From: an uncultured Eubacteriales bacterium
GTDB lineage: Bacteria; Bacillota; Clostridia; Peptostreptococcales; Anaerovoracaceae
Direction: 5' to 3'
NCBI GenBank assembly: GCA_902786815.1
Contig: CADADV010000006.1
Span: 50,344-114,343, forward strand
Length of the DNA stretch: 64,000 bases
This document shows, in pieces, positions 22,325 to 64,000 of the stretch. A model generated the notes under the pieces. It did no database searches and was not told the origin of the DNA. It saw nothing but the letters and a program-made list of their open reading frames with translations. Within the stretch, counting starts at the first letter, position 1; each line of letters begins with the position of its first letter. A program made the translations under genes and the position numbers.

Positions 22325-22349
22325 ATATGAAACGCCTTTGCTTTCGCCT

Positions 22350-23925: not shown

Positions 23926-23959
23926 CCTTCTTCCTCGTTTCTTCCTAAACACGACAAAA

Positions 23960-46594: not shown

Positions 46595-47632
46595 TCATCG
46601 ATATATCCCGTACTTGATCTTCACCCGTTCGAGTTTGCGGATAATCAAGTCACCGAAGAGGAAAATGAAGATGGCCGCCGTCGCTGCATGTACCGCATCG
46701 TATGGAGCACCGGTGATGTACAGGAGCCGCAGTGTGTTCAGACTGATAGGGTCTCCGCCCGGCATGATCGAGGCGTTGACCATGGCGCAAACATTCATGA
46801 TCCCGCCATAGACGATAAAGGTCACAAAGAATGTGAACAGAGCCATGGTAAGTCCATCTGCCGGAAGCCGCTTTCGCTGCAAAAGCACCCCTGCCAGAAG
46901 TCCTCCTGCGCCGAAGATGTACAGGCGCCATCCGATAAAGCCGCTGTTCTCACCTGAACCCGGCCAGATGAGCCAGCACACATAGGCCAGTGCGATGGCG
47001 AACAGGATGCAGATCACCGGTCCCATTACAACACGGAAACTTCTGGAATTCACTTTCATCAGAGGTCCCGGCAGTTTCCGGGTGCCGGCGTTGATCTTTT
47101 CTGACGCCAGCTGCCGGTACTTTCGCAGATCCTCCGGATCGACTTTGTTGAACGCCAGTCCGGCGAGAAATCCCAGCAGCCCCCAGCAGAACATCTGCCA
47201 CGGTGTCCATGGTCCCTGCCCAATGTAGAAATTACAGACCAGTCTGGCCAGCGCACCCACCAAAAACCCCGCTTCCGGGCCCAGGGCGATGCCGGAGATG
47301 ATCACCATCGCCGTGCCTGCCTGGATCGGGACCGTCACATGAAAGAACAACTGCAGAACGACCGTCAAAGCTGCCATCATAGCGATCAGAACGATTTCCC
47401 GCGCCTTTGGTTTGCGCGCTTCGAACACCATGAAGAACGGGATCAGGGTGTAGATCACCACCAAGAGGCTGATGATCATATACATATTCTGATCCAGCAC
47501 AACAATGCCGAACACCATGGTCGCAGGAATCAGAACAAAGATCATAAAGGACGCCATCAGTGCACGCTTCCGTCGGAAGACTTCATACTGCGTGGCCTGC
47601 AGCGCGGTCCGGGAAGCACGCGGCGCTGTCAT
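46595..47632 (-). CDS. ECF-transporter S-component-like membrane protein, atypically large (about 345 aa, about 10 TM segments)
   Basis: Last gene of the ECF module. The preferred start is MTAPRA at 47632 (ATGA junction with the ATPase stop). The first roughly 6 TM segments resemble an S component, and 4 extra TM segments follow a basic loop. Confidence 0.65.
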   Translation of the reverse strand: MTAPRASRTALQATQYEVFRRKRALMASFMIFVLIPATMVFGIVVLDQNMYMIISLLVVIYTLIPFFMVFEARKPKAREIVLIAMMAALTVVLQLFFHVTVPIQAGTAMVIISGIALGPEAGFLVGALARLVCNFYIGQGPWTPWQMFCWGLLGFLAGLAFNKVDPEDLRKYRQLASEKINAGTRKLPGPLMKVNSRSFRVVMGPVICILFAIALAYVCWLIWPGSGENSGFIGWRLYIFGAGGLLAGVLLQRKRLPADGLTMALFTFFVTFIVYGGIMNVCAMVNASIMPGGDPISLNTLRLLYITGAPYDAVHAATAAIFIFLFGDLIIRKLERVKIKYGIYR

Positions 47633-49341
47633 CGGATCCTGCGGATGCATGCCGCCACCTCCTCCCAAGTGATCGCGCCGGGGAAGTATTCCCGCGCGAT
47701 CCGGTTGGCTGTCGTCGTATAGAAGTTGTTGCCCGTGAAGAAGCTCTCCGCTTCGCCTTCCGAAATAATGCCACCGTCAAAGAACATGGCGCAGCGGTCT
47801 GCGTACGCAGCGCAGAATTCAATGTCGTGGGAGACCATCAGGATGGTGATTCCCTGTGCGGCGAGATCTTTCAGGATCTCTGCCAGCGTGATCTTAAAGA
47901 AAGGATCCAACCCCTTGGTCGGCTCATCCAGAAGCAAAATCTCCGGTTCCAGCAGAAGCACTTTGCCAAGCGCCAGCCGCTGCTGCTCTCCGCCGGACAG
48001 ATCGTATGGATGGACCTGGCGGAGATGTTCGATCTGCAGCAGCTGCAGCATGGACTCTACTGCGGCTACTTTTTCCTCATCTGTTTTCTCTGCGTAGTGC
48101 AGTGCCTCCAGCAGATCGTCCTCCACCGTGATCTCTGAGAACAGAGCCTGCGGATTCTGTGGCAGCATCGCCGCCCTGCCGCTGATCTGCACCGATCCCC
48201 GCCGCGGCTTCAGGATTCCCTGCAAAACCTTCAGGAGGGTGCTTTTGCCGACGCCGTTTCCACCCAGCAGAGAGTACAATGTGCCGCGCTCCACCTGCAG
48301 GTTCAGATCCCGCAGCACATCCGGCGCGTCCTTTCTGTAACGGAACCACAGGTCCTTTGTCCGGATCGCGAGATCCGTGTCCGCTCTGCGCGGTGCAGGC
48401 GGGCGCGTTTCTGTTTTCTCTTCCCGCACTTCACGCAGGATCTGCCCGGCAGTCTGCACGTCAAGTTCTGCGGTCGCGGCTTCTTCCTTCAGCCAGAGTC
48501 TGCCCTCACGGACCGTCAGCGGACCAGCCTCGCCGGCATATGTCTCCGCTGTTTCCGGATGCTCCTCCCTGTCCGTCATGACAGTATGATAAATCTTCGT
48601 CACGGCGGGCAGTCCGTAAAACATCGGGTGCTGCAGCTGCGCGAGCTTCGCGCCGATGCTCCGCGGAGCATCACAGGAGAGCACGCCTCCATGATCCATG
48701 ACCACAACACGGTCTGCCATGGTAAACGCCTCTTCCAGGCGGTGCTCCGAAAGGATGACGGTTACACCCAGATCACGGTTGATCCTGCGCACCGTCTGCA
48801 GAAATTCCGACGCCGCGATTGGGTCCAGTTGTGAGGTGGGCTCGTCCAGCACCAAGAGCCTTGGCTGCATCACCATGACGGATGCCAGATTCAGAAGCTG
48901 CTTCTGTCCTCCGGACAATTCGCTCACATCCTTTCGGAACCAGCTCTGGATATCAAAATAACTGGCCATTTCCGCCACGCGGCGGCGGATGGTCGCATTA
49001 TCCAGGCCCAGACTCTCCAGCCCGAAGGCCAGTTCGTGCCAAACCTTATCCGTCACGATCTGGTTGTCCGGATTTTGCTGTACGAATCCGATCTCCGATG
49101 CGCTCCTGCGGTCATCCAACGACTCCACCGGTTCCCCGCAATAGAGAACCTCACCTGTCAGTTCCCCGTATGGAATGAGGTTCTTCTTCATCTGGCGCAG
49201 CAAGGTGGTTTTGCCGCAGCCGGACTTGCCGCATACCACGAGGAATTCGGATTCAGACACCGAAAAACTGACCTCCGACAAGGCCGGACGGTCCGCCAGC
49301 GGATAGGTGAAGCTTACATTGTCAAATCGGATCATTTCCAT
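47629..49341 (-). CDS. ECF transporter duplicated ATPase (EcfA1-EcfA2 fusion type)
   Basis: Two complete ABC cassettes: GKSGCGKTT/LSGGQKQ/LVLDEPTSQLD and GGNGVGKST/LSGGEQQR/LLLDEPTKGLD. Confidence 0.9.
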   Translation of the reverse strand: MEMIRFDNVSFTYPLADRPALSEVSFSVSESEFLVVCGKSGCGKTTLLRQMKKNLIPYGELTGEVLYCGEPVESLDDRRSASEIGFVQQNPDNQIVTDKVWHELAFGLESLGLDNATIRRRVAEMASYFDIQSWFRKDVSELSGGQKQLLNLASVMVMQPRLLVLDEPTSQLDPIAASEFLQTVRRINRDLGVTVILSEHRLEEAFTMADRVVVMDHGGVLSCDAPRSIGAKLAQLQHPMFYGLPAVTKIYHTVMTDREEHPETAETYAGEAGPLTVREGRLWLKEEAATAELDVQTAGQILREVREEKTETRPPAPRRADTDLAIRTKDLWFRYRKDAPDVLRDLNLQVERGTLYSLLGGNGVGKSTLLKVLQGILKPRRGSVQISGRAAMLPQNPQALFSEITVEDDLLEALHYAEKTDEEKVAAVESMLQLLQIEHLRQVHPYDLSGGEQQRLALGKVLLLEPEILLLDEPTKGLDPFFKITLAEILKDLAAQGITILMVSHDIEFCAAYADRCAMFFDGGIISEGEAESFFTGNNFYTTTANRIAREYFPGAITWEEVAACIRRIR

Positions 49342-49372: not shown

Positions 49373-50293
49373 CTACTGTTCTCCATTCTCCAGTCGCTCC
49401 CACCGGAGCTCCCCGGCGATGTCCATGATCAGCGGTGTTGCCGCCATCAGGATAAATGCGATCAACGTTACGGCTGTCATCATGTCGAAAGGATGCAGTT
49501 TGTAGACGGGATAGAACCAGGCTTCTGTCTTATGCAGGGCGCATCCGGCGATGCACAGCGCGCCCAGCACGCAAAGCCAGACCATCATCGCGGTATCCCG
49601 GCGCGAAAAACGGTACAGATTGAAGCTGGTACGTCCCCGCAGTCCGTATCCCCGCGCCTCCATGGAATCCGCGCTTTCGATGGAGGACTCCAAAGACCAG
49701 GAAATCAGGATCGACGCGTTCTTGCCGGCCTGCCGCAAGCGCATTTTAAGCGGCGGCTTCGTATCTTCTACTTTGCCCCGTCCCAGACACCGCTGTCCCA
49801 TGCTGATCTCGCCGTACCGGGCGCGCAGCAGCGGAATGTAGCGAAAGATCATGGACAGGGTCAGGCCCAGCACCGGCGCAGCCCGGCCGAAGAGAAAAAT
49901 CAGTTTCTCGGCGGTCATGACGCAGTTGAAGCTGGTGAACCAGATGAGGACGGAACTGAGCATGACGGCTGCCGAAATCCCGTAAATCAGAGCTTCCGCC
50001 GTGATCCGGTTGCCGTGGATAAAGCACAGAACCGTATCGCCGTCGTGGACGAACAGCACGTTGATCAGCGCCATCACCACTACGATCCAGAAGACGAACA
50101 CCAGATTCAGACGGAGAGCCGCCCTGCCTTTGAGCAAAAGAGAGTAAAACCACGACAGGATAAACGTGGCCGCAAGAAACCAGGGCGACATACTGAACAT
50201 GGTGATTCCGATCACCAGCGCGTAGTACACCAGATTGACCCATGGATGGTATTCCGCAAATTCCGTGCGCTCTCCGATTCCTTCCCTGAACAT
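49373..50293 (-). CDS. ECF transporter T component (CbiQ/EcfT family)
   Basis: A polytopic protein with the conserved ARG motifs (MEARGY, and a preceding SLESSIESA helix). The preferred start is MFREG at 50293 (TAATG junction). Confidence 0.85.
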   Translation of the reverse strand: MFREGIGERTEFAEYHPWVNLVYYALVIGITMFSMSPWFLAATFILSWFYSLLLKGRAALRLNLVFVFWIVVVMALINVLFVHDGDTVLCFIHGNRITAEALIYGISAAVMLSSVLIWFTSFNCVMTAEKLIFLFGRAAPVLGLTLSMIFRYIPLLRARYGEISMGQRCLGRGKVEDTKPPLKMRLRQAGKNASILISWSLESSIESADSMEARGYGLRGRTSFNLYRFSRRDTAMMVWLCVLGALCIAGCALHKTEAWFYPVYKLHPFDMMTAVTLIAFILMAATPLIMDIAGELRWERLENGEQ

Positions 50294-50832
50294 TATTTGC
50301 CGCTTCCCCCGCCGGCTTCGCTCTTTGTGTAATCCACTACGTAGACCCAACGGATCTGATCGCCGTCCTTCAGTTCGTATTTCGAACATCCGACATCGGG
50401 CATTTCATCATTCACATAATAGGTCCAGCCGCTCCGTTTGCCTGCGTCCATTTCATACAGATGCCCGATGCCTTCCACATACCTGGATCGGTATACGGAA
50501 TCCTCGCTGCTCTCCATCTGGATGTCCCGGTCACGGCATGTGTTGTACAGGCAGTCGTAGACCGTCTCCCCCTCCGCGAACTTGTACGGAGTCGGCGCGA
50601 GGATCACGCCGTCCGATGGAATGTAATCCCGGATGGATTCCTTCTGCAGCTGGTCCATCTGCTGCGACAGGTCGCTGCAGTCCACCGAAATGGTCACCGT
50701 CCCGGCACTGCCGCCGCCCTGTTTCACGACAAGGCCCGCGAACCCAAGCGCCGCCAGCACCACAAGCACCACGATGATGATAATCGACCGCGCTCTCTTT
50801 TTCTTTGTTTTTTTCAGAAGCTGCTGGCTCAT
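50293..50832 (-). CDS. Membrane-anchored DUF4430 (transcobalamin-like C-terminal domain) protein
   Basis: The preferred start is MSQQLLKKTKKKRARSIIIIVVLVVLAALGFAG, an N-terminal anchor. The C-terminus SGWTYYVNDEMPDVGCSKYELKDGDQIRWVYV is the DUF4430 hallmark (GW.Y.VN...Y.L.DGD.I). Confidence 0.8.
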   Translation of the reverse strand: MSQQLLKKTKKKRARSIIIIVVLVVLAALGFAGLVVKQGGGSAGTVTISVDCSDLSQQMDQLQKESIRDYIPSDGVILAPTPYKFAEGETVYDCLYNTCRDRDIQMESSEDSVYRSRYVEGIGHLYEMDAGKRSGWTYYVNDEMPDVGCSKYELKDGDQIRWVYVVDYTKSEAGGGSGK

Positions 50833-53800
50833 TTTGTCTTTACCTTCCTGACGACAGGCTCTCCCCAATAGGTCTTTCCGCTGACCACTTTATAAGGCGT
50901 GACCTGAACATAATACAGTTTTTTCTTCTTCAGTTTCTTGATAGTATAGGTTATCTTTTTTGTCTTCACCGTCTTCGATGACGACAGATTCTTCTTCAGG
51001 CTGTACTTGATCCGGTATCCGGTCGCCGCCTTGATCTTCTTGACCGAAACAGCGATGGACTTTTTCTTTCCTTTCAGTTTCGGTGCTGTCTTCGAGATTA
51101 TGCAGAAGGAGGATGCGCTGTATGTCCCTTGTCCGCCTGCATTGACGGCGCAGACCTTCACCTCATAGCTGCCGTTTGCCGCAAGACCCGTGATCTTACG
51201 GGATGTGCTCTTGGACGTCAGATACTTCCAGGCGCCGCCCGCCTTTCGGTAAGCGATGCGGTAGGAACTTGCCCTGGCTGCTTTCTTGTATTTGACTGTG
51301 ATCGTCCTGGCAGACGCACTGACGGACGCAGTCTGGCCGGTGACCTTCGCCGGTTTCGCAGGTTTCGGCGGCTCCGGCTGCGGCTGCGGCATAGCGCAGA
51401 CCTTCACCGGCAGCAGGAGTTCCATGCTCCTGCCCCGGGCGTCGATGCCATCCGGCAGGACCGCCTCGCCGCAGATCACAAACTGCTGCTCTTTCTGATC
51501 GACCGGATCATACGCATAGCCGCCTTCCGTTTCCCAGACGATTTCCGTCGTTATCTCAGCTTCGCCGGTTTCCTCTGCGTACGCCTCGTTCATTTTCAGA
51601 TGTGCCTGCACGGACGACAGCATCTCCGTGACCGCATCGTATCCGGTTCCGTTCGGCAGCTCGCTGAAAGCGGCCTGGTCCTCCGGCGCGATATAGACGC
51701 TGTCCGGATCCAGACTGACGCCCGGTGAGGATGGTTCTTCTCCTGTCAGATCCACCGTGTAGATGAAGTCCTCCGGGAAGCTCTTTGCGTAGCCTTTTCC
51801 GCAGGCGATGGCGCGGATCTTCACGGTGACCACCTGGCCCTCTTCACCGATGGAGAGCGGCTGCTCATACAAGGTGCCGCCTGTGGAAGACGGTGCCGGA
51901 AGATCCTCGTCCTCCGTTCCGGTCACGTAGCGGACCTGCGCACCGCTGCCCAGCGCCTGCAGGGCGACCCGGATCGGTTCTGTGTAAGTTCCCGGAGCCA
52001 GACTTGCCACCGGCGGGCGCAGCGTCGGATCGGCTACCTCTACGTGCACCCGCGCGCGGCGGTTCTCCTGGGGATAGGTCACCCAGATCTCTGCCTCGCC
52101 CCGCGTAGCAGCGGTTATGACGCCATAGGAGTCGACTGCCGCAACCTGCGGATCCGAACTTTCGAAGGAGCAGTTCTCCGTCACGTCCACGCCCCCGAAG
52201 GATGCCGATACGGCAGCAGTCCTGCCCTGACCGCTGGTGTACAGCGTAACCGAAGACGGTGACAGGCGGAGCGGCGTATCACCTGTTTCGATGTATTTCT
52301 CACTGCGCTGCAGTGTGACATGATAGGTTCTGGTGACTTTGCCGCTTGGCGATGTCACTTCAACATCCACCTCGGCAGTAGTTCCTCCCTTGACCCAGTA
52401 CACAGGATAATACGAGCTATTGGACGCCCTTTTGATCGTTCCGTCCTCGTTCAGACGGCTCTGTGTATTTCCAACATTATCTACAGGAATGACACGTATG
52501 GCAGCTTCCGGATCCGCCGTCTCCAGCCAGAGCCTGAGGAAGGCTTTCCCCGCATCGACCTCGCAGATCCTGCCAACATAGTCTTCGATTCCGGGATCAA
52601 ATGTCGGATCATATCCGATGCCTTTGTTGGCGGAGACCCAGTCACCGCTGTCCGCAATCTGCGCCGGAGCCGTATTGGATGCGCTGATGTACAGTCCTGC
52701 CAGATTCGCGTTGTTGGACAGGGTCGTCGTATTCAGCGTATAAGTCCTGGTATAGGTTTTCTCACCAACGATCCTGGATACGGTGATCGGTATGGCCGCT
52801 GCGTCCTCTCCTACGGAAACGGAGATCTTCGATCCGGTGTACTCCTCACCGTCCACGCGGGCCGTCATGCCATCGGGCACCTGCAGCCGCACATCTACTG
52901 CAGCGGCATCGTTCGGCGCCTGCAGACTGTAGTTCAGGATCCCCGGTTCAAACGGATAATCCCATACCAGTTCCTGCTGCCCGTACTTCACGCTGATGTC
53001 ATTCAGATAGGCTTTATTAAGAGCGACCGCCATCAGGTGACCGCTGTCGTTTTTGTAGTAGAAGGTTCCTTCCCGGTCGCAGCAGAGCGGGCTGATGCAG
53101 TACTGCTGCATGGATAATTCCGGGCGGAACAGGAGCTGCGGAGACGCATGACTTTCTGCGGTCGCCTCCGGGCTGTCCTCCAGACAGTAGATCCCGCCGG
53201 GAAATGCGTTGAATGTAAAGTACAGACGGACCTTGCCATCCGTTTTCTCTGTCGCCGTCGAAAGCAGCGGCGATGCCTGCGGATAACCGGAGATCGGGAC
53301 CGTATAGATCAGCGAACGGTCGGAAAGTGTGTCGTCATCCCGGATCACCGCGAACATGTGGCCGCCGTCCGCACTGAACTGGCCGCCGGCGCCCGCCGCG
53401 CCGACGTAGATCCTGCCCTTATATACGACCGGCGTGGAGGTCATCATCGCGTCCACCTTGTCTGTGGTGCTTTTGCCTCTTACCTGTAATTGGATATAGG
53501 ATGTATTGCGGAACTTTCCGTCCGTTCCGAAGTCCGCCTTATACAGCCGTCCGCCTTTGGATACGAAATAGATGTGTCCGTTGTCGTACACTACCGTGCT
53601 GCGGATGTCTCCCTTGACGCCCGTGATCCGGTCCACGACCTCACCGGTCCGGCGGTCGAAGCTGTAGACAATGGCAGTCTCTGTATATCCCCCGGCTTCC
53701 GAGAAGAGGTTGTCGGTACCGTCATCGGATCCGACAACGACGTAGTTCTCATCAACGTAACTTCCGGCCCAGTAGAAACCGTGCGGCGTTTCGCCGTGCT

Positions 53801-54443
53801 CCGACGGAACGTACTTCCATTTGGCTTCACCGGTCGCTGCGTCCAGACAGAAGAAAACGCCATCCTTTGTTTCGGTCTCCCAGATCCCGGTGTAGACGCA
53901 GCCGTCCTGATAGCTGATGGGCGACAGCGTCTGACTGTACCGGTATTCATCGGAGATCCACTTGGAGCGGAGCGTGTCCGCATCCAGGCACTGCACGCGG
54001 CCTTTCATGATCGGAACAAAGAGCTGGTCGTTGTCCGCATCGTAAGTGATCGGGTTCATGCCGTATCCTACGTTCAGTTTCAGTTCTTCACTTTCCTTCA
54101 CGATCTCTCCGGTATTCTTGTTGATCCGGTACACGTGGGTGCTGGACGCAGTGTACAGATACCCGTCGATGATGAGCGGCGGTGTGAAAGAAGTGGTATA
54201 TCCAGAAACCATCTTACGGCTCCACTTCAGCGCAGTCTCCTCATAGACCGACGGCGTTTCGATCTCACCGATGACGCCGTTGTTCGTCGGACTGTTCTGG
54301 TACTGTCCCCACTCCACATCGCGCTCTGTCGCATAACTGTCCGATGCAAAAGCAATCCAGGCCATGCCCAGAAACAGAAGCAGTACCACCCCTGCTTTGA
54401 AATAGAATCTGTTTTGTCTCGCGTGTTCCCTCATGTTGCTCAT
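50829..54443 (-). CDS. 1204-aa secreted multidomain protein. From N- to C-terminus: PQQ/BamB-like beta-propeller, two cadherin-like beta-sandwiches, Big_2, an Fn3-associated module, and two highly basic FN3/Ig-like modules.
   Basis: The signal peptide is FYFKAGVVLLLFLGMAWIAFASDSYA. Repeated W/Y-rich blades span roughly aa 40 to 480. LNDISVKYGQQELVWDYPFEPGILNYSL and LAGLYISAS... are cadherin-like. LRLSPSSVTLYTSGQGRTAAV...AEIWVTY is Big_2-like. The C-terminus is KK-rich. No LPXTG motif and no C-terminal TM segment. The start may be the ATG at 54434. Confidence 0.8.
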   Translation of the reverse strand: MSNMREHARQNRFYFKAGVVLLLFLGMAWIAFASDSYATERDVEWGQYQNSPTNNGVIGEIETPSVYEETALKWSRKMVSGYTTSFTPPLIIDGYLYTASSTHVYRINKNTGEIVKESEELKLNVGYGMNPITYDADNDQLFVPIMKGRVQCLDADTLRSKWISDEYRYSQTLSPISYQDGCVYTGIWETETKDGVFFCLDAATGEAKWKYVPSEHGETPHGFYWAGSYVDENYVVVGSDDGTDNLFSEAGGYTETAIVYSFDRRTGEVVDRITGVKGDIRSTVVYDNGHIYFVSKGGRLYKADFGTDGKFRNTSYIQLQVRGKSTTDKVDAMMTSTPVVYKGRIYVGAAGAGGQFSADGGHMFAVIRDDDTLSDRSLIYTVPISGYPQASPLLSTATEKTDGKVRLYFTFNAFPGGIYCLEDSPEATAESHASPQLLFRPELSMQQYCISPLCCDREGTFYYKNDSGHLMAVALNKAYLNDISVKYGQQELVWDYPFEPGILNYSLQAPNDAAAVDVRLQVPDGMTARVDGEEYTGSKISVSVGEDAAAIPITVSRIVGEKTYTRTYTLNTTTLSNNANLAGLYISASNTAPAQIADSGDWVSANKGIGYDPTFDPGIEDYVGRICEVDAGKAFLRLWLETADPEAAIRVIPVDNVGNTQSRLNEDGTIKRASNSSYYPVYWVKGGTTAEVDVEVTSPSGKVTRTYHVTLQRSEKYIETGDTPLRLSPSSVTLYTSGQGRTAAVSASFGGVDVTENCSFESSDPQVAAVDSYGVITAATRGEAEIWVTYPQENRRARVHVEVADPTLRPPVASLAPGTYTEPIRVALQALGSGAQVRYVTGTEDEDLPAPSSTGGTLYEQPLSIGEEGQVVTVKIRAIACGKGYAKSFPEDFIYTVDLTGEEPSSPGVSLDPDSVYIAPEDQAAFSELPNGTGYDAVTEMLSSVQAHLKMNEAYAEETGEAEITTEIVWETEGGYAYDPVDQKEQQFVICGEAVLPDGIDARGRSMELLLPVKVCAMPQPQPEPPKPAKPAKVTGQTASVSASARTITVKYKKAARASSYRIAYRKAGGAWKYLTSKSTSRKITGLAANGSYEVKVCAVNAGGQGTYSASSFCIISKTAPKLKGKKKSIAVSVKKIKAATGYRIKYSLKKNLSSSKTVKTKKITYTIKKLKKKKLYYVQVTPYKVVSGKTYWGEPVVRKVKTK

Positions 54444-54467: not shown

Positions 54468-55685
54468 TCAGTAGACCCCGTCCGCCAAGGAAAAAATCAG
54501 GTTCAGTTCGTCGCCGTCCTCCAGCTTATAGGATCCCAGTCCACGTTCCGGGAAGGTTCCGTTCACGCTGTAGATCCATCCGGAGGAGTCATAGAAATCA
54601 TGTTCTTTCAACTTGTTCGGATCCTGGTCTGCCGGATCTTTCTCGGTCTTTCGCAGTTCCTCCATGGTCGTCCGGACCTCGTCGGTGATATAGGCCCCCT
54701 GTGCGATGCCGCTGCGGCTGATTCCTGACAGATATCCGCCGCGGAAAGTTGGATCGATCCCTGCCTGGGAAAGAGCCGTCTCCAGTACATCCTTGGCCGT
54801 ATCCCCGCGGGTGATCTCAATGGTCCCCTCATAGAAGGCTCCCAGATTCAGAATCTCCGCACTGACAGAAACGTAGACTTCCCCGGTGACCTCCGCCGCG
54901 GCAGAAGTGTTTCCTGTGAAGTTCACTGTCTTTGTTTTATCATGGCCTTCCCGGTCCACTGCAGTGACGGCGATGGTGTTCTTTCCGTCTTTGAGGGCGG
55001 TCCTGAACCAGGTCTTCGACCCGTCCGCGCCTTCGCTGGAAAGGGGCTCGCCATTACAGCTGACCATAAAACTGCCGTCGCTTTCGGAGAACACGGGGAT
55101 GTTCCTGCCTTTGTAATCTGTGACGGTCACCGAAAAGTCCAGCCGGGTCCCATTGACCACTTCCCCGCCGGCAACGCTGATTTTGATCGTGGGCTCCATC
55201 GCCCGCTCTTCCTCTGACTTTGTGGGGTCTGTGGGATCGGTGGGATCTTCTGTCTTTGAAGGTTTCGTCGGCTCTTCCTTTGTCGGGTCAGTAGGCTCCG
55301 TTCTTTTATCTGGTTTCTTTTTGCCGCTATCCGGTTTCTTCTTGTTGCCGGACCCCGGGTTCGCGGGCTTCACGCTGCCGGGACGGATCCGCTTTGGTGC
55401 AGTTTTCTGATCCTTCTGTGTTTCCTGCTTTTGCTTGAGTTTTTCTTCCCGCTGCTTTTCCTGCTGTTTGTGGATCTTCTCCTGCTGTTTGTCCAGCTTG
55501 TATCCTTTGCCATCCAGATAGACCTGCGAACGTTCCACATTCATCTGCGCCGCCTGGACCTGGGGCACATACTCTTCCTGACCATTGAGAATGACCGCCA
55601 GAGCGCACACGATAAGGAGGGTCATTGCTGCCGCAGCGACCAGAAAAATCCGTCTCCTGTTTGTGCGCCCTTTGTTCTTTCTCAA
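54468..55685 (-). CDS. Membrane-anchored protein with a charged linker, an Ig-like domain and a C-terminal DUF4430 domain
   Basis: The N-terminal anchor is IFLVAAAAMTLLIVCALAVIL. A KQQEK / PTDPTK low-complexity region follows. The C-terminus is SSGWIYSVNGTFPERGLGSYKLEDGDELNLIFS. Confidence 0.8.
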   Translation of the reverse strand: MRKNKGRTNRRRIFLVAAAAMTLLIVCALAVILNGQEEYVPQVQAAQMNVERSQVYLDGKGYKLDKQQEKIHKQQEKQREEKLKQKQETQKDQKTAPKRIRPGSVKPANPGSGNKKKPDSGKKKPDKRTEPTDPTKEEPTKPSKTEDPTDPTDPTKSEEERAMEPTIKISVAGGEVVNGTRLDFSVTVTDYKGRNIPVFSESDGSFMVSCNGEPLSSEGADGSKTWFRTALKDGKNTIAVTAVDREGHDKTKTVNFTGNTSAAAEVTGEVYVSVSAEILNLGAFYEGTIEITRGDTAKDVLETALSQAGIDPTFRGGYLSGISRSGIAQGAYITDEVRTTMEELRKTEKDPADQDPNKLKEHDFYDSSGWIYSVNGTFPERGLGSYKLEDGDELNLIFSLADGVY

Positions 55686-56662
55686 AACAGTTTCTCTCCC
55701 TGCGCCGCCAGCAGCGCACTGTCAATAGCACAGAGCGCCTGCTCTGTGGCCATCACATCCATTTCATCTCCATGCAGATGGGAGAACCCATCTGCGCATC
55801 TGTACAGCATCAACCCATCAAGAAGGGTGCTGCCCTTCGCAAAATCCTCCGCTTTCGCGGGATCCTCTCCGAGTGCCGCTACTGCCATGACCACCTGGGA
55901 GGTGGATTCGCTGTTGCCGTAGTCTCCGCCCGGATGCTGCTGGGTGGCAAGCCACCCCTTTGCGGCTGCCAGCGCATCTGCGATCTGCTGATTTTCCCCT
56001 GCAAAGGGCGCCAGGGCCTGCATGGCCATGGCTGTGATATCCACATCCGCAGTCTGTCCGTCATAAGTGATGCTGCCGTCCTCCAGCTGCATTCCGAGGA
56101 TATCTTCGATATATGTTTCCCGGGCTTTCAGTTCTCTCCCGCAGCAGGCCGCTGCGTTCAGCGCCCAGATCTCGGCGTTGATTCCCTGCGCTTTTACAGT
56201 TTCCGTATCCTCCTGCTGCGCCAGAAGATCGAAGCCTTCCACATCCTGCGGATCGCCGCCGATCATCTGCAGGGCGATGGCTGCTTTTGCATTATCTGTA
56301 GGCCGATCCGGATCCAGCACGCCGTCTGCCCGCTTCACCGCGAGACGCAAGGATTCTTCGTACTGCATGAACAGAGACTGCGCCTCTGCTTCCTTCCCCA
56401 TGGAAGACCCGGCGATGCCGATGATGCTCCATTCATTACCTGGTCCGACCTCTTCTCCTGAAAGCAGCCGGATCAGCTGGACTGCGGTTTCCTTTTCGAC
56501 CTGCGCCAGATCTGCAGTCTGCGCTGCCGCAGCCTGCTCCGTATTCCCGGATGCAGGATCAGGACTGTCTGTACTGTCATTTCCTCCGCAGCCTGCCAAA
56601 AGCAGCAGCAATACGCTCAGGCAGAGTGCCGCGATCCAGTTTTTCGTTTGCTTTCTTTTCAT
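55682..56662 (-). CDS. Lipoprotein with a prenyltransferase/terpene-cyclase-like alpha/alpha-toroid domain
   Basis: The preferred start is MKRKQTKNWIAALCLSVLLLLLAGCGG (lipobox) at 56662. Periodic helical-hairpin repeats carry W/G-rich turns (EWSIIGIA, NAEIWALNA, DITAMAMQAL, TSQVVMAVAAL, MATEQALCAI). Confidence 0.72.
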   Translation of the reverse strand: MKRKQTKNWIAALCLSVLLLLLAGCGGNDSTDSPDPASGNTEQAAAAQTADLAQVEKETAVQLIRLLSGEEVGPGNEWSIIGIAGSSMGKEAEAQSLFMQYEESLRLAVKRADGVLDPDRPTDNAKAAIALQMIGGDPQDVEGFDLLAQQEDTETVKAQGINAEIWALNAAACCGRELKARETYIEDILGMQLEDGSITYDGQTADVDITAMAMQALAPFAGENQQIADALAAAKGWLATQQHPGGDYGNSESTSQVVMAVAALGEDPAKAEDFAKGSTLLDGLMLYRCADGFSHLHGDEMDVMATEQALCAIDSALLAAQGEKLF

Positions 56663-58769
56663 ACATCCCCCGTTCATATTCTTTCCAGATGGCGGTACGT
56701 TCGTCCTCCTCGACCGGAAGCTCACTGAACGCCGCCCGTTCACCGATCTCAACTGTCTCCGCAGACAATTGCAGGCCTTCATCCATCATGCTTCCATAGA
56801 TGGCGCAGATCCCCTTTCGTATGTCCGGATCGGCGAACGATCTCATCCGCCTGCGATAGGCGATCCGGCGCCGGATCACTTTCTGCAGGATCCACACAAG
56901 TAGCAGGAGAAGCAGAATCAGTCCTGCTGTGAGCAGGAAGCGCAATAGCTTTTTCCCGTAATTAACGGCCGGTTCCTCCTCTTCTTCCATCGGAGGAATG
57001 TCCAGCTGCTGGTCGTTCTGTTTCTTATAATTCACCGACTCCAGGCCTCGTGTGAGATCTGCCTGCGGCATGACATCCTGCCATCCCGGCGTAAACTCCA
57101 TCGGCACCCATCCGAAGCCGTCGACATAGATTTCCGTCCACGCGTGGGCGTGGCTGAAGCCGATATCGTAAGGCTGTCCTGCTTTTGCAGCTGCGGCATC
57201 GGCCGGCGTGAAGAGATAGCCTTCCACATAGCGGGCCGGAATGCCGTAGTACCGCATCAGCATTGTCGCCAGAGAAGCATAGTGCGCGTCGCAGCCTTTG
57301 CCTGAAATCAGGAAGCGCTCGATGGGATCCTCCCCCTTCTTCGGAGATTTGAACTTCTCCGTATAGATGAAGTTTCCATCCAGATAATCCCGGACTGCAG
57401 TAATGGCCCGCCTGTAATCCGCATGGTCGCGTGTCAGATCTCCGGGATCGCCCATGGCCATGTACAGCGTGCCCGCAAGCTCCTCGGGTACGTCGGTATA
57501 ATGTTCATAACACCACACGTTGTAGTGGCTCTCACTTGTATAATAGTTCTGCAGCTGCGGACTGCTGTCCGTGCTGTAAAGTCTCCCTACCCAGTCCGTC
57601 CAGCTGCCTGTCATATCCGGCAGAGCCTGATAGACCGCAGTCTTTGTCCCGAACAGTTTGTCTGTTCTGAGAAATCCACCGGCGTAATTCTGCGCGCCCT
57701 GCGGAATCGCTTCACTCGTCCCCGTTATTTCGTAAGGTGTGTAGATGCAGGAACAGTCGGCTTTTTTCGTCTGTACGGTGCACGCGAACGGCTCACCCGC
57801 CTGCTGCGGGTCGGATAACTGCGCCGTCAGCGCGAGCTGCGACAGGCCGTCGAAGCCATTCCGGTTCAGCCAGTACTGGATATCCCGCCGGCTGTAATAG
57901 GTTTCATTGCCCAGGTCCGTCCACTGGTGACCGCGGTAGGTTTCGCCGACAAATCCGCGAAGCCAGCAGGACTGCAGCGCGCCGTTCTTCTGATCTATTG
58001 TCAAGGTCAACGCTGTCTTTGTCTTGTCTTTGCCTCCTGCACTGAGCAGCTGCAGTACCTGATCTGAACTTCCCCGCAGATCAGTCAGTGATTCTCCGGT
58101 AAGCCCTTCCAGATCTCCTTTACCCAGCGGATTCTTCCCGTAGCGCTTATCGAGCTGTTTCGTGATGGCCGTCTGGGTCTGCTTCTGCAGCGCGCTCTGG
58201 GAAAGCCCCGCCGTGTGATCGATCAGCATGCCTGCTGCAAATGTGATGATCAGCGCCGCCAGCGGGATCGCCAGCAGGAGAATGTGCCCTCCCTCTGTCT
58301 GCTGCATACAGGCAAACGCGCACACCAATGCAAATCCAAAAACCAATGCGGTCCATGCTCCGGGCGCGGCTCCGGTAAGAAGCAGCAGCCCCGTGCCGGG
58401 CAGTGCGAAAACCAGGAGCAGCCACTTGCATCCGCTGCGCAGGATCAGATACGACAGCACGCATAGCAAAAGCAACGCGATGGTCAGGAAGATTCCCTGG
58501 GGATGATAGCTTCCGTCTGCCGCTGCACCGCCTGCGAATTTACGCAGGATAATGTAGTCGGTGGTTCCCAACCGGTCTGCGATGCTGTTGCAGACACTGA
58601 GCAGTCCCTGCAGCGGTGCGCCGCTGAAAGCCCCGGCCGGACTCCACTGCAGCCCGAATGCGGAGCATCCTGCTGCGAAGGTGCTCCCGCCGAGCAGGCA
58701 TGCGCACAGGACTGCCAGGACCTGCTGACTTCCACCCTTACTCGATTGTTCCGAATACGTTAACTGCAC
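56577..58769 (-). CDS. Transglutaminase-like (papain-fold) polytopic membrane protein, TgpA-like
   Basis: About 6 N-terminal TM segments, a large extracytoplasmic region with GCDAHYASLATMLMRYYGIPARYVEGY...HAWTEIY (the Cys-His-Asp transglutaminase core), and a C-terminal TM segment. Its last 86 nt overlap the next gene. Confidence 0.85.
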   Translation of the reverse strand: MQLTYSEQSSKGGSQQVLAVLCACLLGGSTFAAGCSAFGLQWSPAGAFSGAPLQGLLSVCNSIADRLGTTDYIILRKFAGGAAADGSYHPQGIFLTIALLLLCVLSYLILRSGCKWLLLVFALPGTGLLLLTGAAPGAWTALVFGFALVCAFACMQQTEGGHILLLAIPLAALIITFAAGMLIDHTAGLSQSALQKQTQTAITKQLDKRYGKNPLGKGDLEGLTGESLTDLRGSSDQVLQLLSAGGKDKTKTALTLTIDQKNGALQSCWLRGFVGETYRGHQWTDLGNETYYSRRDIQYWLNRNGFDGLSQLALTAQLSDPQQAGEPFACTVQTKKADCSCIYTPYEITGTSEAIPQGAQNYAGGFLRTDKLFGTKTAVYQALPDMTGSWTDWVGRLYSTDSSPQLQNYYTSESHYNVWCYEHYTDVPEELAGTLYMAMGDPGDLTRDHADYRRAITAVRDYLDGNFIYTEKFKSPKKGEDPIERFLISGKGCDAHYASLATMLMRYYGIPARYVEGYLFTPADAAAAKAGQPYDIGFSHAHAWTEIYVDGFGWVPMEFTPGWQDVMPQADLTRGLESVNYKKQNDQQLDIPPMEEEEEPAVNYGKKLLRFLLTAGLILLLLLLVWILQKVIRRRIAYRRRMRSFADPDIRKGICAIYGSMMDEGLQLSAETVEIGERAAFSELPVEEDERTAIWKEYERGMYEKKANEKLDRGTLPERIAAAFGRLRRK

Positions 58770-59862
58770 CGTAACGTTCCAGCCTTTCTGTATCTCGCTC
58801 TCCCTGGGCGCTCACCAGGAAGTGGTTCGTGAAGTTCACGCCTTCCGGACTCTCCAGATACCGGATCACTGTTGAGACATCGCTTACTGCGAACCCGCAT
58901 CCCAGTACATCCGGCACGCTCGCCCAGAGTTCTTCTTCTGAACGCACCTGCCGCCGCATAAACATCTCCTCCCTGCTGTCATACCAGCCGATGCTGTGGG
59001 GAATGGATTTCTCCAGCAGCGCCGCAGACATGGAGTACATCAGTTCCACCAGTGCGCTTCGCTGTGCCGGCGGCACCTGTGCCTGCGGATCCAACAGATT
59101 ATCCAGGATCACCAGTATGTTGTTCTCTATCGGAAAGGACGGGATCTTGACCGTCACTTCGCCCAGTTTCGCCGTCAGTTTCCAGTGGATCTGTTTCAGA
59201 CTGTCGCCTTCCTGGTATTCCCGTACGCCGAACACTTCACCCGGATCGCTTCCCTTCTCATACTGGGAATACTGGTAGCTCTCCATATTGTAGGAATCCA
59301 GAAACTCCGCCGGAATCTGCGCCGGATGCAGCTGCGGCGCGAAGTAGCAGGCGGCCGTGGATGTATCCGGCCCATGCTCATCCTGCCCCGCAGTTCCGAC
59401 TTCCGCCGGCGCTGCGAACAGACGCAGCGGGTCAAGGACTGTCATCTCCGGCATCTTCAGTTCGACTTTGCCGCAGTACTGATCCGTCAGGTCAAAGTTA
59501 TAGCGCCGGTTTCCTCCCGGCGGCAGACTGAAGGACACCGGAATGCGTCTGCTTTCTCCAGTGAGAAGATTCACCGCTTCCGCCTCTCCTGTACCACAAA
59601 ATACCGGTAGTTTCCCCCGGTTTTGCAATTCCATTTTGATTGTCATGGTCTCGCCTTTGCTGACCATGTCGCCGCCTGTGAATCCTGCTGTCAGTTTCCG
59701 TCCGCTCAGGCGTGTCAGCAAATACGCCGCAACGGCGTAGATTACTGTAAACAGCAGGAGCGCGCTCACCGCTGCCTGCCCTTTGAAAAAGAACAGGATC
59801 AGCAGAACGAGTGTCCACAGGGCAAACAGAATGCGGTTTCGCCTTATCTGTGTGTTCTGCAT
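58738..59862 (-). CDS. DUF58 protein (vWA-like), the usual MoxR partner
   Basis: Two N-terminal TM segments and the DUF58 motif GVREYQEGDSLKQIHWKLTAK. Confidence 0.85.
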   Translation of the reverse strand: MQNTQIRRNRILFALWTLVLLILFFFKGQAAVSALLLFTVIYAVAAYLLTRLSGRKLTAGFTGGDMVSKGETMTIKMELQNRGKLPVFCGTGEAEAVNLLTGESRRIPVSFSLPPGGNRRYNFDLTDQYCGKVELKMPEMTVLDPLRLFAAPAEVGTAGQDEHGPDTSTAACYFAPQLHPAQIPAEFLDSYNMESYQYSQYEKGSDPGEVFGVREYQEGDSLKQIHWKLTAKLGEVTVKIPSFPIENNILVILDNLLDPQAQVPPAQRSALVELMYSMSAALLEKSIPHSIGWYDSREEMFMRRQVRSEEELWASVPDVLGCGFAVSDVSTVIRYLESPEGVNFTNHFLVSAQGERDTERLERYGAVNVFGTIE

Positions 59863-59887
59863 CCCTCCTGTTTCCTAACTGCGTTCT

Positions 59888-60823
59888 TTATTTCCTTACA
59901 TCCGGCTGCGGTACGCTCTGCAGGATTTCCCCAATGATCGTTTCCGCATCCTTGCTTTGTACATTTGCCTTCGAACTGAGCATAAGCCGATGCCTTGCGA
60001 TATCCGGAAATACGTCCTGCACGTCCTGCGGGGTGACGAATTCCCGACCGTGCAGATAAGTCCATGCCTGCGCCATGGCGGTCAGGGACAGCGCCCCGCG
60101 CGGGCTGATTCCCAGCCGGATCAGCGGATGCTGCCTTGTCCTGCGGCACAGCACCGTAACATACTGATAGATCCTGTCATGGACATAGATTTCCTTCGCC
60201 TGACTGCGCATAGCCAGAATAGCCTGGGCTCCCGCTACACGTTCGATGCTCTGCAGTGGATCCGTCCTCCTGCGGTCTTTCAGGATATCGATCTCTGCCT
60301 TCTCATCCGGATACCCGATAGACAGCTGCACCATGAACCGGTCCAGCTGCGCCTCCGGCAGCATCTGGGTTCCCGCCGTTCCGATCGGATTCTGGGTCGC
60401 AATGACAATGAATGGTTCCGGGACCTTCGTCGTCCGTCCGTCCACAGTAATGTTTCCTTCCTGCATGACTTCCAGCAGAGACGATTGGGTTTTGCTGGAT
60501 GTCCGGTTGATCTCATCAGCCAGGAGAATGTTGCACATGGCTGCGCCCGGCCGGTACATGAGTTTACCGCTTTCCTTGTTATATACCGTAAAACCTGTGA
60601 TGTCCGACGGCACGACGTCCGGCGTGAACTGCACCCGGTTGAACTTCAGATCCATGGCTTTGCTGAAGGCCAGCGCCAGGGTGGTCTTGCCCACTCCCGG
60701 AATGTCCTCCAACAGAATGTGTCCTCCGGCGATGATCACCGTAAGCACCTTGCGGATGATTTCTTCTTTTCCCAGAATGGCCTTGCCGACTTCTGTTTCA
60801 ATTCTGTGTAGCGTTGGATTCAT
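59888..60823 (-). CDS. moxR: MoxR-family AAA+ ATPase
   Basis: ILLEDIPGVGKTTLA (Walker A), ILLADEINR (Walker B), and the VIATQNP sensor region. The length is 311 aa. Confidence 0.93.
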   Translation of the reverse strand: MNPTLHRIETEVGKAILGKEEIIRKVLTVIIAGGHILLEDIPGVGKTTLALAFSKAMDLKFNRVQFTPDVVPSDITGFTVYNKESGKLMYRPGAAMCNILLADEINRTSSKTQSSLLEVMQEGNITVDGRTTKVPEPFIVIATQNPIGTAGTQMLPEAQLDRFMVQLSIGYPDEKAEIDILKDRRRTDPLQSIERVAGAQAILAMRSQAKEIYVHDRIYQYVTVLCRRTRQHPLIRLGISPRGALSLTAMAQAWTYLHGREFVTPQDVQDVFPDIARHRLMLSSKANVQSKDAETIIGEILQSVPQPDVRK

Positions 60824-60840: not shown

Positions 60841-60878
60841 AAACAAAAAGACGCAACGAAATCAATGCTCGTTACGTC
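60841..60878 (-). terminator. Intrinsic terminator; expression platform of riboswitch no. 4
   Basis: GACGTAACGA-gcattgatt-TCGTTGCGTC (10 bp including one G-U pair) followed by TTTTTGTTT. It lies 17 nt before the moxR ATG, with the RBS AGGAGA between them. Confidence 0.7.
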
Positions 60879-60934
60879 CGATATTTTGCGCAAGCTGTGT
60901 GATGCGCAACCCAAGTCGCGCACCTGCTATTTCC

Positions 60935-61130
60935 CTATCATAGGTCTTCTGGCTCGCACGGTTGGTAAAACCTGCCGTCCATTCGCCTTCTCAAGGGATT
61001 TCCCTCAATGACTGACTTTCGTCCTGAATGGCGGCCTGCCGCGCTCACAGCACCGGTCAAATGCCCAGGATTTTCACCTGATTCCCTCATCCCTGCAGCC
61101 ATACGCCGCAAGGTCATGACAGTTTTTTTG
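60935..61130 (-). promoter_or_regulatory. Cobalamin riboswitch no. 4 (long form), leader of the moxR...ECF operon
   Basis: The minus strand reads GAGGGAATCAGGTGAAAATCCTGGGCATTTGACCGGTGCTGTGAGC ... GTCAGTCATTGAGGGAAATCCCTTGAGAAGGCG ... the B12-box-like GAGCCAGAAGACCTATG. Confidence 0.8.
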
Positions 61131-61138
61131 TCATGATT

Positions 61139-62854: not shown

Positions 62855-64000
62855 TCACTTAACCTTGATTTTTACGGTTACAGTCTTGCTGCCTGCTTTA
62901 TATTTCGCATTTCCGGCAGCGGTTACCTTCACTTTGATCTTATATGTTCCTTTTTTCGTTTTCTTCTTGACTGTGATATTGCCATTCTTGGCATTGATCG
63001 TCAGCTTGCTTGAAGAACCCTTCAGTTTCTTATATGTGACTTTGCCCTGATTCTTCTTGACGACCAGAGCCTTCTTGGCGATCTGTTTTTTCTTTTTCAG
63101 TTTCTTGTAGGATACCTTCTTTGTGACCGCCTTGACTGTCATCGGCTGCGTCTTCTTGACGACAGTCGGCTTTTCACTCTTTACGATATTGAACGTCACT
63201 TCTTTGGTTCCATAATAATCACCGATGCCAGTTACCGTAACCGTCGCCTTGCCAAGTTTTATGTTGTTCTTATACTCAACTGTGTAATCAACATTCTTCT
63301 TAAGCACACCTTCTGAATTAGCTGATCTTCCATACTTCTCACCTACAACAGATATCTTTGGCGTTATTGGTTTGCCAGTATACTTTTGGTCTGCAATTGC
63401 TGATACAGAAGTTATTGGCAATTTCCCATAGTTGTCAGTAAAGTACTGCGGATAATTCTGCTGGTATTTTTCATGTGCAATCTCAAAGCATGACTTACCA
63501 TTATATAAATCAACCAAAGCGCCTAAAGTCTGATATGTCGCCATACGGTTAGGACTGCCATATAGAACGCCACCATCGACTATCTCTCCACAAAGACAAG
63601 TCAGAAGACTCCCGTATTCTTCTTGAAAATCTCCTGTATTAAGATCTTCCGCAGACAATCCGGCCAGAACCAGTGTATTAACAGCAACGGCGCTACTGTC
63701 AGCATTATTACCTTTCCATATTTTACTGATATCTTCTGATTCTGAAGGATTCCATGTCATAGCGCCATTTATGCTAATATTATGGCCCGCTACCATCCTT
63801 ACGTATTTTGACAATGCATCTTTACATTGCTTGCCATACATAATATCATTTTCAAAAAATCGAAGCGCCATAAGTGACATTGAAAAGCTATCGCTTATAC
63901 CTTTATTTTCTGAACACCCACTGATCCAATCAACTTGTTTTTTGATTTGAGATCTTCTCATCTCACTGGTATATCCTTCTTCTGGCGTCGCTCCTGCGAT
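62855..64000 (-). CDS. Surface protein, C-terminal part: alpha/alpha-toroid-like domain, Ig-like module and basic C-terminal module. The 5' end lies beyond 64000.
   Basis: The frame stays open from 63961 to 64000 (IAGATPEEGYTSE precedes the track's Met). Helical-repeat sequence is present (FSMSLMALRFF, SSAVAVNTLVLAGL, MATYQTLGALVDL). The C-terminus KKKTKKGTYKIKVKVTAAGNAKYKAGSKTVTVKIKVK is nearly identical to that of 61223..62833. Confidence 0.65.
   Translation of the reverse strand: MAGATPEEGYTSEMRRSQIKKQVDWISGCSENKGISDSFSMSLMALRFFENDIMYGKQCKDALSKYVRMVAGHNISINGAMTWNPSESEDISKIWKGNNADSSAVAVNTLVLAGLSAEDLNTGDFQEEYGSLLTCLCGEIVDGGVLYGSPNRMATYQTLGALVDLYNGKSCFEIAHEKYQQNYPQYFTDNYGKLPITSVSAIADQKYTGKPITPKISVVGEKYGRSANSEGVLKKNVDYTVEYKNNIKLGKATVTVTGIGDYYGTKEVTFNIVKSEKPTVVKKTQPMTVKAVTKKVSYKKLKKKKQIAKKALVVKKNQGKVTYKKLKGSSSKLTINAKNGNITVKKKTKKGTYKIKVKVTAAGNAKYKAGSKTVTVKIKVK

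Follow-up and report, generated by a model that had tools for sequence, protein, structure and literature searches.

Surface propellers are known as accessories of vitamin B12 uptake from Bacteroides, in which BtuG and BtuK, both seven-bladed, bind B12 on one face, BtuG doing so with Tyr/Ser/Asn/Gln/Glu contacts and a negatively charged surface (PMC13616437). For the BtuH and BtuJ homologues of Gram-positive Firmicutes, a 2026 review of the Bacteroides system gives the roles as 'entirely uncharacterized' (PMC13616437), and extracellular corrinoid capture in Gram-positive gut bacteria is still an open question. We analysed 64,000 nucleotides (nt) of DNA from an uncultured Eubacteriales bacterium (contig CADADV010000006.1, positions 50,344 to 114,343; this whole stretch is referred to as the window), in which a riboswitch-led operon encodes a 1204-amino-acid (aa) surface protein with an N-terminal beta-propeller. 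A preliminary description of the same DNA had suggested that this domain may be a functional analogue of BtuG. By comparative genomics we show that the propeller family is a core accessory of energy-coupling factor (ECF) corrinoid importers repressed by cobalamin riboswitches. What is new is the coupling of an unrelated propeller superfamily to transcobalamin-like domains and an ECF importer; a full-text literature search returned no account of this propeller family, or of a pyrroloquinoline quinone (PQQ)-like propeller in Gram-positive B12/ECF loci.

BtuG of Bacteroides thetaiotaomicron (PDB 8BMZ, cited in PMC13616437) is likewise an extracytoplasmic propeller of a cobalamin-riboswitch corrinoid-uptake locus, and its ligand lies on one face; comparably, conserved aromatic and acidic residues are found here on one face as inferred. 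BtuG has, however, seven blades and not eight, and it caps the TonB-dependent BtuB in the outer membrane, whereas the Gram-positive propeller sits beside an ECF importer and transcobalamin-like domains. BtuK1, a PKD domain joined to a propeller that binds cyanocobalamin in Bacteroides (PMC13616437), has in common with our protein an Ig-like domain, a surface propeller and a B12 locus, but belongs to another propeller family, with seven blades, no sequence match, the Ig-like domain at its N-terminus and a lipid anchor. The split transcobalamin-like ECF system Lsa1836-1840 of Lactobacillus sakei (bioRxiv 10.1101/864751) shares the ECF module, a DUF4430 protein and an alpha/alpha-toroid protein, but its operon as described contains no propeller and its substrate is argued to be heme.

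The propeller and the protein that carries it

The protein is the product of the sixth gene of the operon and is composed as follows (positions are those of the window).

50829..54443, minus strand: gene 6, the 1204-aa surface protein (open reading frame, ORF, and its translation)
54345..54443, minus strand: signal peptide, residues 1-33, with the cleavage motif between AFA and S (read from the sequence, without a predictor)
53010..54323, minus strand: predicted eight-bladed PQQ-like/BamB-type beta-propeller, residues ~41-478 (Pfam PQQ_2, AlphaFold2, Foldseek and conservation)
52728..53003, minus strand: Cadherin-like beta-sandwich 1, residues 481-572 (Pfam PF12733, above cut-off)
52305..52520, minus strand: Cadherin-like beta-sandwich 2, residues ~642-713 (PF12733, a marginal 23.1 bits against a cut-off of 24.2)
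52059..52175, minus strand: Big_2/Big-like Ig domain, residues ~757-795 (sub-threshold Pfam matches)
51786..51998, minus strand: CHB_HEX_C_1/Fn3-associated-type module, residues 816-886 (22.2 bits against a cut-off of 22; Fn3_assoc 19 bits)
50832..51332, minus strand: two lysine-rich fn3 domains, residues 1038-1204 (Pfam fn3, 54.6 bits, in two stretches)

Blade-like segments resembling PQQ or BamB propellers had been described at 53006-54326, that is, at residues ~40-480 of the 1204-aa ORF, and the present results bear this out. The Pfam profile PQQ_2 matches residues 147-243 with 40.1 bits (cut-off 27.6), next to a weak match of Beta-prop_ACSF4 to the same protein. The AlphaFold2 model of residues 36-480, for which 49 of the 82 collected homologues were aligned with the query, is all-beta, with a mean predicted local distance difference test (pLDDT) of 92.4 and a predicted template modelling (TM) score of 0.92. 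Its strand pattern corresponds to eight blades of four strands each, where the outer strand of blade 8 is provided by the first long N-terminal strand (residues 70-77) in the usual 'velcro' closure. Compared by Foldseek with the PDB, the propeller groups with eight-bladed propellers at 11-16% identity, the best neighbour being BamB (E 5.6e-16, TM-score up to 0.78 on the target) and the others including quinohemoprotein and lanthanide alcohol dehydrogenases and tetrathionate hydrolase; the matches to BamB and the quinoproteins have E-values of 1e-15 to 1e-16. Searching all PDB sequences with the family profile returned designed 'Cake' propellers, PQQ_3 kinase-associated propellers, BamB (E ~1e-12), tetrathionate hydrolase and quinoproteins. 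The domain passes the profile cut-off and matches the eight-bladed fold of the Pfam PQQ_2/BamB-like superfamily, to which it belongs, and on the predicted structure residues ~41-478 form a real eight-bladed propeller.

Fold and superfamily are thus shared with BamB, yet identity to the BamB/PQQ_2 propellers is 14-16%, and BamB is a periplasmic lipoprotein of the Gram-negative beta-barrel assembly machinery (BAM), which the host bacteria lack. A BamB equivalog was rejected on the score of NCBIfam TIGR03300 (31.3 bits against a cut-off of 285.2), on the missing BAM genes and on the occurrence in Clostridia without an outer membrane; Pfam found neither BtuB nor BAM genes among the genes of the operon. 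BtuG and BtuK chains were absent at E<=10 from the family-profile search of all PDB sequences, and absent from the 50 best Foldseek matches. Membership in the BtuG family was rejected as well, given the eight blades, no sequence match, no lipobox, no BtuB, and relatives that live in Clostridia. For the femtomolar to picomolar binding of cobalamin on one propeller face that marks this family, the conserved top face, as inferred, is the one candidate counterpart here. What stands of the suggested convergent, BtuG-like solution is a surface propeller in a B12-regulated operon; in the detail of its fold and in its ancestry the domain is unlike BtuG, and any likeness to it would be convergent.

Conservation was assessed by aligning the query with 70 non-redundant homologues, 71 sequences in all, whose identity to the query is 36-61%. 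Loops were assigned by standard propeller topology, with the D-to-A and B-to-C loops on one ('top') face, and not from the coordinates of the model. By this topological assignment, of the 83 positions conserved in at least 85% of the sequences, 39 fall in 'top' loops, 12 in 'bottom' loops and 29 in strands. Those of the bottom loops are mostly Gly/Thr turn residues, and the top-loop set includes invariant aromatic and polar side chains, the invariant or nearly invariant residues of this face being Q171, G222-F-Y-W-A-G227, D240/D241, D279/R281, K296, T335, Y387/Q389, N412-x-x-P-G-G, Y448/C449 and N465-D466-S467. As read from the alignment, a set of residues with so many aromatic and acidic/polar side chains resembles a small-molecule site.

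The signal peptide consists of a basic n-region and the hydrophobic core AGVVLLLFLGMAWIAFA, then S, and it has no lipobox. Neither is there an LPXTG motif in the 1204-aa protein, and the lysine-rich fn3 tail is a possible wall-binding or cross-linking tail. The stalk modules named previously (two cadherin-like, one Big_2, one Fn3-associated) were found again by Pfam, partly at marginal scores. That the propeller is exported and kept off the membrane by ~700 residues of Ig-like domains can be regarded as shown or nearly so.

The operon and the propeller family

Rfam places four cobalamin riboswitches within the window, one of which heads the operon of the propeller gene. Besides gene 6, the operon comprises the following elements.

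60926..61132, minus strand: Cobalamin riboswitch aptamer heading the operon (RF00174, 56.5 bits, E 2.4e-11, full-length model match)
60849..60879, minus strand: terminator-like hairpin and T-run in the interval between the aptamer and gene 1 (12-base-pair stem, then TTTTTGTTTGA)
59888..60823, minus strand: gene 1, MoxR-type AAA+ ATPase (Pfam AAA_3, 186 bits; AAA_lid_2)
58738..59862, minus strand: gene 2, DUF58 protein (Pfam DUF58, 23.0 bits, just under the cut-off of 23.4)
56577..58769, minus strand: gene 3, membrane transglutaminase-like protein (Pfam Transglut_core, 77.8 bits)
55682..56782, minus strand: gene 4, alpha/alpha-toroid lipoprotein (its family profile leads to toroids; no Pfam family of its own)
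54468..55685, minus strand: gene 5, 405-aa membrane-anchored DUF4430 protein (Pfam DUF4430, 35.4 bits, C-terminal)
50293..50868, minus strand: gene 7, small membrane-anchored DUF4430 protein (Pfam DUF4430, 68.9 bits)
49373..50389, minus strand: gene 8, ECF transporter T component (Pfam CbiQ, 28.8 bits)
47629..49341, minus strand: gene 9, duplicated ECF ATPase, A-A' (Pfam ABC_tran twice, 185.8 bits)
46595..47668, minus strand: gene 10, vitamin-type ECF S component (ECF-ribofla_trS, 66.8 bits; ECF_trnsprt, 38.4 bits)

The hairpin at 60849..60879 is, to judge by its sequence, probably the expression platform and would act by transcription termination; with RF00174 and this platform on the strand of the operon, the locus classifies as a Cobalamin-riboswitch-regulated corrinoid uptake locus. 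The ten minus-strand genes downstream overlap or are separated by gaps of at most 31 nt, and no strong internal terminator was found in the ten-gene operon. The propeller gene is the sixth of the ten and is flanked on both sides by DUF4430 genes (54468-55685 and 50293-50868), so that Rfam and Pfam agree with the earlier picture of a propeller on a secreted, stalked surface protein encoded in a cobalamin-riboswitch operon between two DUF4430 genes. In the gene 5 protein a Q/K/P/T-rich linker precedes the C-terminal DUF4430 domain, and the gene 7 product probably has 179 aa, with its start at 50832. The operon adjoins cobalamin biosynthesis genes. In a close relative from metagenomes, reached via the DUF4430 neighbour, the ten genes stand in the identical order, and cbiD and further genes of B12 biosynthesis come after them; the contig collection that was searched has no entry with exactly the 1204-aa protein.

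In the AlphaFold2 model of the small DUF4430 protein, made with 22 database homologues (pLDDT 84.5), a membrane helix at the N-terminus is joined to a compact domain. Its Foldseek matches at E<=1e-3, 19 in number, were without exception beta domains of human intrinsic factor, transcobalamin or haptocorrin, or the Ruminococcus gnavus structure 3u7z, and against the isolated transcobalamin beta domain, apo (5no0) or cyanocobalamin-bound (5np4), the TM-score was 0.72-0.75. The structure 3u7z was deposited as a putative metal-binding protein, and we take it to be a DUF4430 protein. The DUF4430 domain of the operon, then, models as the intrinsic factor/transcobalamin/haptocorrin beta-domain fold. 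In a published analysis DUF4430 stands at the C-terminus of TCN proteins (PMC4350170). The transcobalamin link is visible by fold comparison only: the DUF4430 family profile had no match among PDB sequences, and single-sequence searches with the toroid and the DUF4430 protein against the same sequences gave nothing useful.

Gene 4 probably has its true start at Met41, which gives the lipobox LLAGC. Its family profile finds squalene-hopene cyclase/prenyltransferase toroids at E 1.7e-8 and transcobalamin-2 at E 0.074. The Pfam family Cobalamin_bind matches 6 of the 24 aligned family members (the window protein and 23 homologues; best E 5.9e-5), the window protein itself reaching E 0.028, and a close orthologue bears a weak precomputed match to it. 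On these profile matches the lipoprotein is a candidate analogue of the transcobalamin alpha domain. Because the DUF4430 domain is predicted to have the beta-domain fold and gene 4 to form an alpha/alpha toroid, the operon would encode a 'split transcobalamin' beside its ECF importer; and because such transcobalamin-type parts are already encoded there, it makes better sense to view the propeller as partnering DUF4430 than as a BtuG equivalent acting alone.

Relatives of the propeller were sought by a species-level scan (one genome per species) with a degenerate pattern on the conserved motif GFYWAG, and were found in 460 species genomes, the best match being 58% identical. The 80 best loci come from Blautia, Hornefia, Eubacterium minutum, Anaerovorax, Gallibacter, Faecalimonas, Lachnospiraceae, Oscillospiraceae, Christensenellaceae and Peptococcia, and the family is concentrated in abundant gut Clostridia, with Blautia, further Lachnospiraceae and Oscillospiraceae among them. 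When 1.84 billion representatives were searched exhaustively with the profile, at least 1572 clusters at 50% identity were obtained with E<=1e-30. NCBIfam has no family for this propeller, which represents a large, uncharacterised family of Clostridia surface proteins. PQQ_2 was matched in 28 of 31 large members, and 25 of the 31 carry the cadherin-like sandwich; Ig-like, SLH, choline-binding and dockerin modules are also attached, and wall anchors vary (three SLH in locus L065, three CWB2 in L067). In stand-alone members, of 446 aa, the propeller is accompanied by a signal peptide and, at the C-terminus, a hydrophobic/amphipathic helix.

Gene partners were counted in 83 loci by iterative searches of six-frame ORFs within ±10 kb of the propeller with the operon proteins of the window; since many loci are truncated, the counts are lower bounds. 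The partners lie nearly always on the strand of the propeller.

DUF4430: 72 of 83 loci
Toroid: 46 of 83 loci
ECF ATPase: 43 of 83 loci
ECF S component: 38 of 83 loci
MoxR: 37 of 83 loci
DUF58: 36 of 83 loci, the orthologue coming after MoxR
Transglutaminase: 34 of 83 loci
ECF T component: 32 of 83 loci

DUF4430 is fused to the propeller or lies less than 400 nt away in 60 of these loci, and in 16 a single ORF holds the propeller and one or two DUF4430 domains, in either order. Two such fusions are known in detail from Pfam: that of L065 reads propeller-Ig-DUF4430 and three SLH, and L061 contains, in order, DUF4430, InlB repeats, dockerin, cadherin-like and PQQ_2, preceded by an N-terminal toroid seen by iterative search only. 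Among the 143 best new representatives at 50% identity, 39 (27%) have DUF4430 in the same chain, with the domain order (D, DUF4430; P, propeller) DP in 28, PD in 7, DPD in 2 and PDD in 2, and only one of the 143 has a toroid in the chain. Minimal operons of propeller, DUF4430 and ECF genes, without toroid and MoxR genes, occur in L001, L029, L035, L041, L065 and L078, and it follows that neither the toroid nor the MoxR module is tied as tightly to DUF4430 and the ECF importer as the propeller.

Riboswitch control recurs across the family. A same-strand Cobalamin riboswitch at the Rfam gathering score was present in 6 of the 7 loci tested. The MAFFT alignment of 11 of these riboswitches looked too rough and too long for a covariance model, and an nhmmer profile was built from them instead, with E<1e-8 taken as a strong match, a reversed-sequence control (0 matches) and counts to be read as lower bounds. 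Strong matches were obtained in 40 of the 83 loci, every one on the strand of the propeller. The riboswitch lies upstream of the propeller ORF in 36, and in 21 of those within ~40-480 nt of it, directly upstream, so that the propeller is the first regulated gene there. Of the six minimal operons named above, all but that of L001 have a riboswitch upstream. With riboswitches in at least 40 of 83 loci, DUF4430 fused or adjacent, and ECF genes alongside, the tie to corrinoid uptake reaches from the single operon to the family as a whole.

Proposed role and competing explanations

We regard it as very probable that the propeller protein is a dedicated component of corrinoid acquisition. That it acts as a surface corrinoid-capture module which works with DUF4430 and feeds the ECF importer is a reading for which we see an even chance, and for direct contact between the propeller and the corrinoid the chance is even at best, perhaps slightly lower. 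In the mechanism that we propose, scarcity of B12 would let the operon be transcribed through its riboswitch. The propeller, at the outer edge of the wall, would use its conserved top face of aromatic and acidic residues to capture corrinoid, whether free or bound to a carrier (F223-Y224-W225, D240/D241, D279/R281, Y387/Q389, N412 and N465-D466-S467), and the transcobalamin-beta-like DUF4430 domain would join it and clamp the other side of the ligand. The corrinoid would then be passed to the membrane-proximal toroid lipoprotein and the small DUF4430 protein, as a split transcobalamin, and from these to the ECF S component for ATP-driven import.

A more specific version can be offered tentatively and is, in our judgement, doubtful: propeller and DUF4430 may make up a two-part corrinoid clamp, the propeller replacing the alpha/alpha-toroid domain of transcobalamin, as the outermost stage of a wall-spanning relay that feeds ECF importers in gut Clostridia and has evolved independently of BtuG and of the mammalian carriers. 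If true, it would add a new architecture to those that capture B12 with high affinity. In Gram-positives, surface proteins of the Isd/NEAT heme relay span the wall and hand the tetrapyrrole inward to a membrane transporter. The relay suggested here is alike in concept, with folds and ligand that are unrelated, and it would match both the Isd relay and the BtuG/BtuK/BtuH surface relay of Bacteroides in function while being made from unrelated parts. Should the propeller bind corrinoids, alone or with DUF4430, it would define the Firmicutes counterpart of BtuG, would explain competition with Bacteroides and the host for B12, and would offer a protein for binding, structural and competition experiments.

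Several points weigh against corrinoid capture by the propeller. Its top face is assigned by strand topology and not by inspecting the model; the folds closest to it, those of a protein-protein scaffold (BamB) and of redox enzymes, do not belong to corrinoid binders; and the transcobalamin-type domains already in the operon could do all of the binding. Some members are orphans far from B12 genes, as in L067, and L001 has the ECF/DUF4430 context with no riboswitch at the Rfam gathering score. For the homologous ECF/transcobalamin-like system of L. sakei, import of heme has been proposed (bioRxiv 10.1101/864751).

The main rival is a BamB-like docking role, which we hold to be possible, if not the likelier outcome: the propeller would bind proteins and not corrinoid, either organising the DUF4430 and toroid binders at the surface or docking carriers of host or dietary origin (intrinsic factor, haptocorrin), from which DUF4430 would strip the B12. 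BamB is the top neighbour in Foldseek and in the PDB profile search, the transcobalamin-type domains would in principle suffice for binding, and fusion or adjacency to DUF4430 fits a physical partnership equally well. However, an invariant polar and aromatic loop cluster on one face, kept at 36-61% identity, would be expected of a small-molecule site more than of a protein interface, and the toroid-less minimal operons still keep the propeller.

It is improbable that the propeller is an extracellular enzyme, a hydrolase or oxidoreductase, PQQ-like or without cofactor, by which corrinoids or their carriers would be modified or released ahead of uptake. Quinoprotein dehydrogenases and tetrathionate hydrolase are close structural neighbours, and, with several Asp, Asn, Ser and Arg residues invariant, an active or metal site is conceivable. 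The preliminary description had held closest neighbours that are clearly enzymes or lectins, with active sites unrelated to corrinoids, to be at odds with its proposal; what was found is the non-enzymatic BamB together with quinoproteins, at 12-16% identity. Quinoprotein alcohol and methanol dehydrogenases have the eight-bladed scaffold in common with the domain, but they are 120-250 residues longer (chains of 509-723 residues in the Foldseek list against ~440 here), and the setting here is anaerobic, surface-anchored and B12-regulated. A PQQ-dependent dehydrogenase was ruled out, as Pfam PF01011 had no match in the window protein at E<=0.01 and conservation of the vicinal Cys-Cys PQQ site is lacking, the CC at residues 454-455 not persisting in the family consensus. 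No Pfam enzyme family matches the propeller protein at cut-off. The hosts are anaerobic Clostridia, and PQQ synthesis is not known from these, which also speaks against an enzyme.

Import of heme or of another tetrapyrrole, with the propeller serving that ligand, is very improbable. It is suggested by the L. sakei Lsa1836-1840 ECF system, which has transcobalamin-like proteins and was linked to heme uptake (bioRxiv 10.1101/864751), and is opposed by the cobalamin riboswitches that stand over the window operon and at least 40 of the 83 related loci and by the cobalamin biosynthesis genes adjoining the operon.

We give still less credit to a MoxR-vWA-beta-propeller ternary system, in which the propeller would work with the MoxR ATPase and DUF58 and not with the transporter. 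The three are indeed encoded in one operon, and the MoxR protein matches Pfam bpMoxR with 34.3 bits, but AAA_3 fits this ATPase far better (186 bits), MoxR and DUF58 accompany the propeller in 37 and 36 loci as against 72 for DUF4430, and the minimal operons lack both. This frame was rejected, bpMoxR not being the best match and MoxR missing from more than half of the propeller loci. A generic adhesin that merely happens to be located in the operon, with no role in corrinoid uptake, is the least credible of all: it would agree with the adhesin-type stalk domains and with orphan members such as that of L067, but dozens of genera show the co-location, the fusions and the direct control by riboswitches, and for this recurrent B12-linked context the reading was rejected.

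Further observations in the window and in related loci

The trio of MoxR (AAA_3), DUF58 and transglutaminase genes (56577-60823, minus strand) stands under a cobalamin riboswitch in the window, and the trio is found upstream of the propeller in about 34-37 of the 83 loci (L003, L006-L019 and others). It may be speculated that the Gln/Lys-rich linker of the 405-aa protein and the Lys-rich fn3 tail of the 1204-aa protein are cross-linking substrates of the transglutaminase.

Just upstream of the operon riboswitch, two surface-type proteins are encoded at 61223-62833 and 62855-63961 (both minus strand). A lysine-rich module at the C-terminus is common to the two (46% identity over 181 aa), and one of them has a Listeria-Bacteroides repeat. 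The lysine-rich tail of the 1204-aa protein was suspected to be the same module, but BLASTP gave no significant similarity to them (E 0.82).

Two further riboswitch-led operons of the window, at 27540-29833 (plus strand) and 19665-23952 (minus strand), encode CbiK cobalt chelatases, one of which bears an N-terminal extension of ~150 aa. Each of these operons also encodes a protein with a sub-threshold NEAT match (24.5 and 26.2 bits, cut-off 32.8), and these could be further tetrapyrrole-binding surface proteins.

Among the related loci, L053 has four full-length cobalamin aptamers (78-104 bits) on one strand within 2.6 kb (1187-3787, plus strand) upstream of its DUF4430/propeller cluster, three of them in tandem within 700 nt. 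In L035 (plus strand) one cobalamin riboswitch (9488-9624) is immediately upstream of the propeller gene and a second (12343-12494) lies between the propeller and DUF4430 genes, while a fluoride riboswitch (8893-8968) shortly precedes both; a FecR domain is present at the N-terminus of the DUF4430 protein encoded in L035. The orphan of L067 (9869-12967, plus strand) consists of the propeller, two cadherin-like domains and three CWB2, and is located amid genes for a nucleoside phosphorylase, a helicase and other unrelated functions; within 10 kb there is neither a DUF4430 or ECF gene nor a riboswitch, so that not every member of the family is B12-linked.

Fused ORFs of ~820-950 aa that join the duplicated ECF ATPase and the S component (A-A'-S) occur in L006, L048, L053, L054, L056, L062, L065, L078 and L083; in L065 (14485-17112) Pfam finds two ABC_tran and ECF-ribofla_trS in this unusual fused polypeptide. 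In L037, L075 and L081, single ORFs of 634-1085 aa combine toroid and DUF4430 in a bacterial architecture like that of full-length transcobalamin, and they adjoin propeller-DUF4430 fusions in the same loci.

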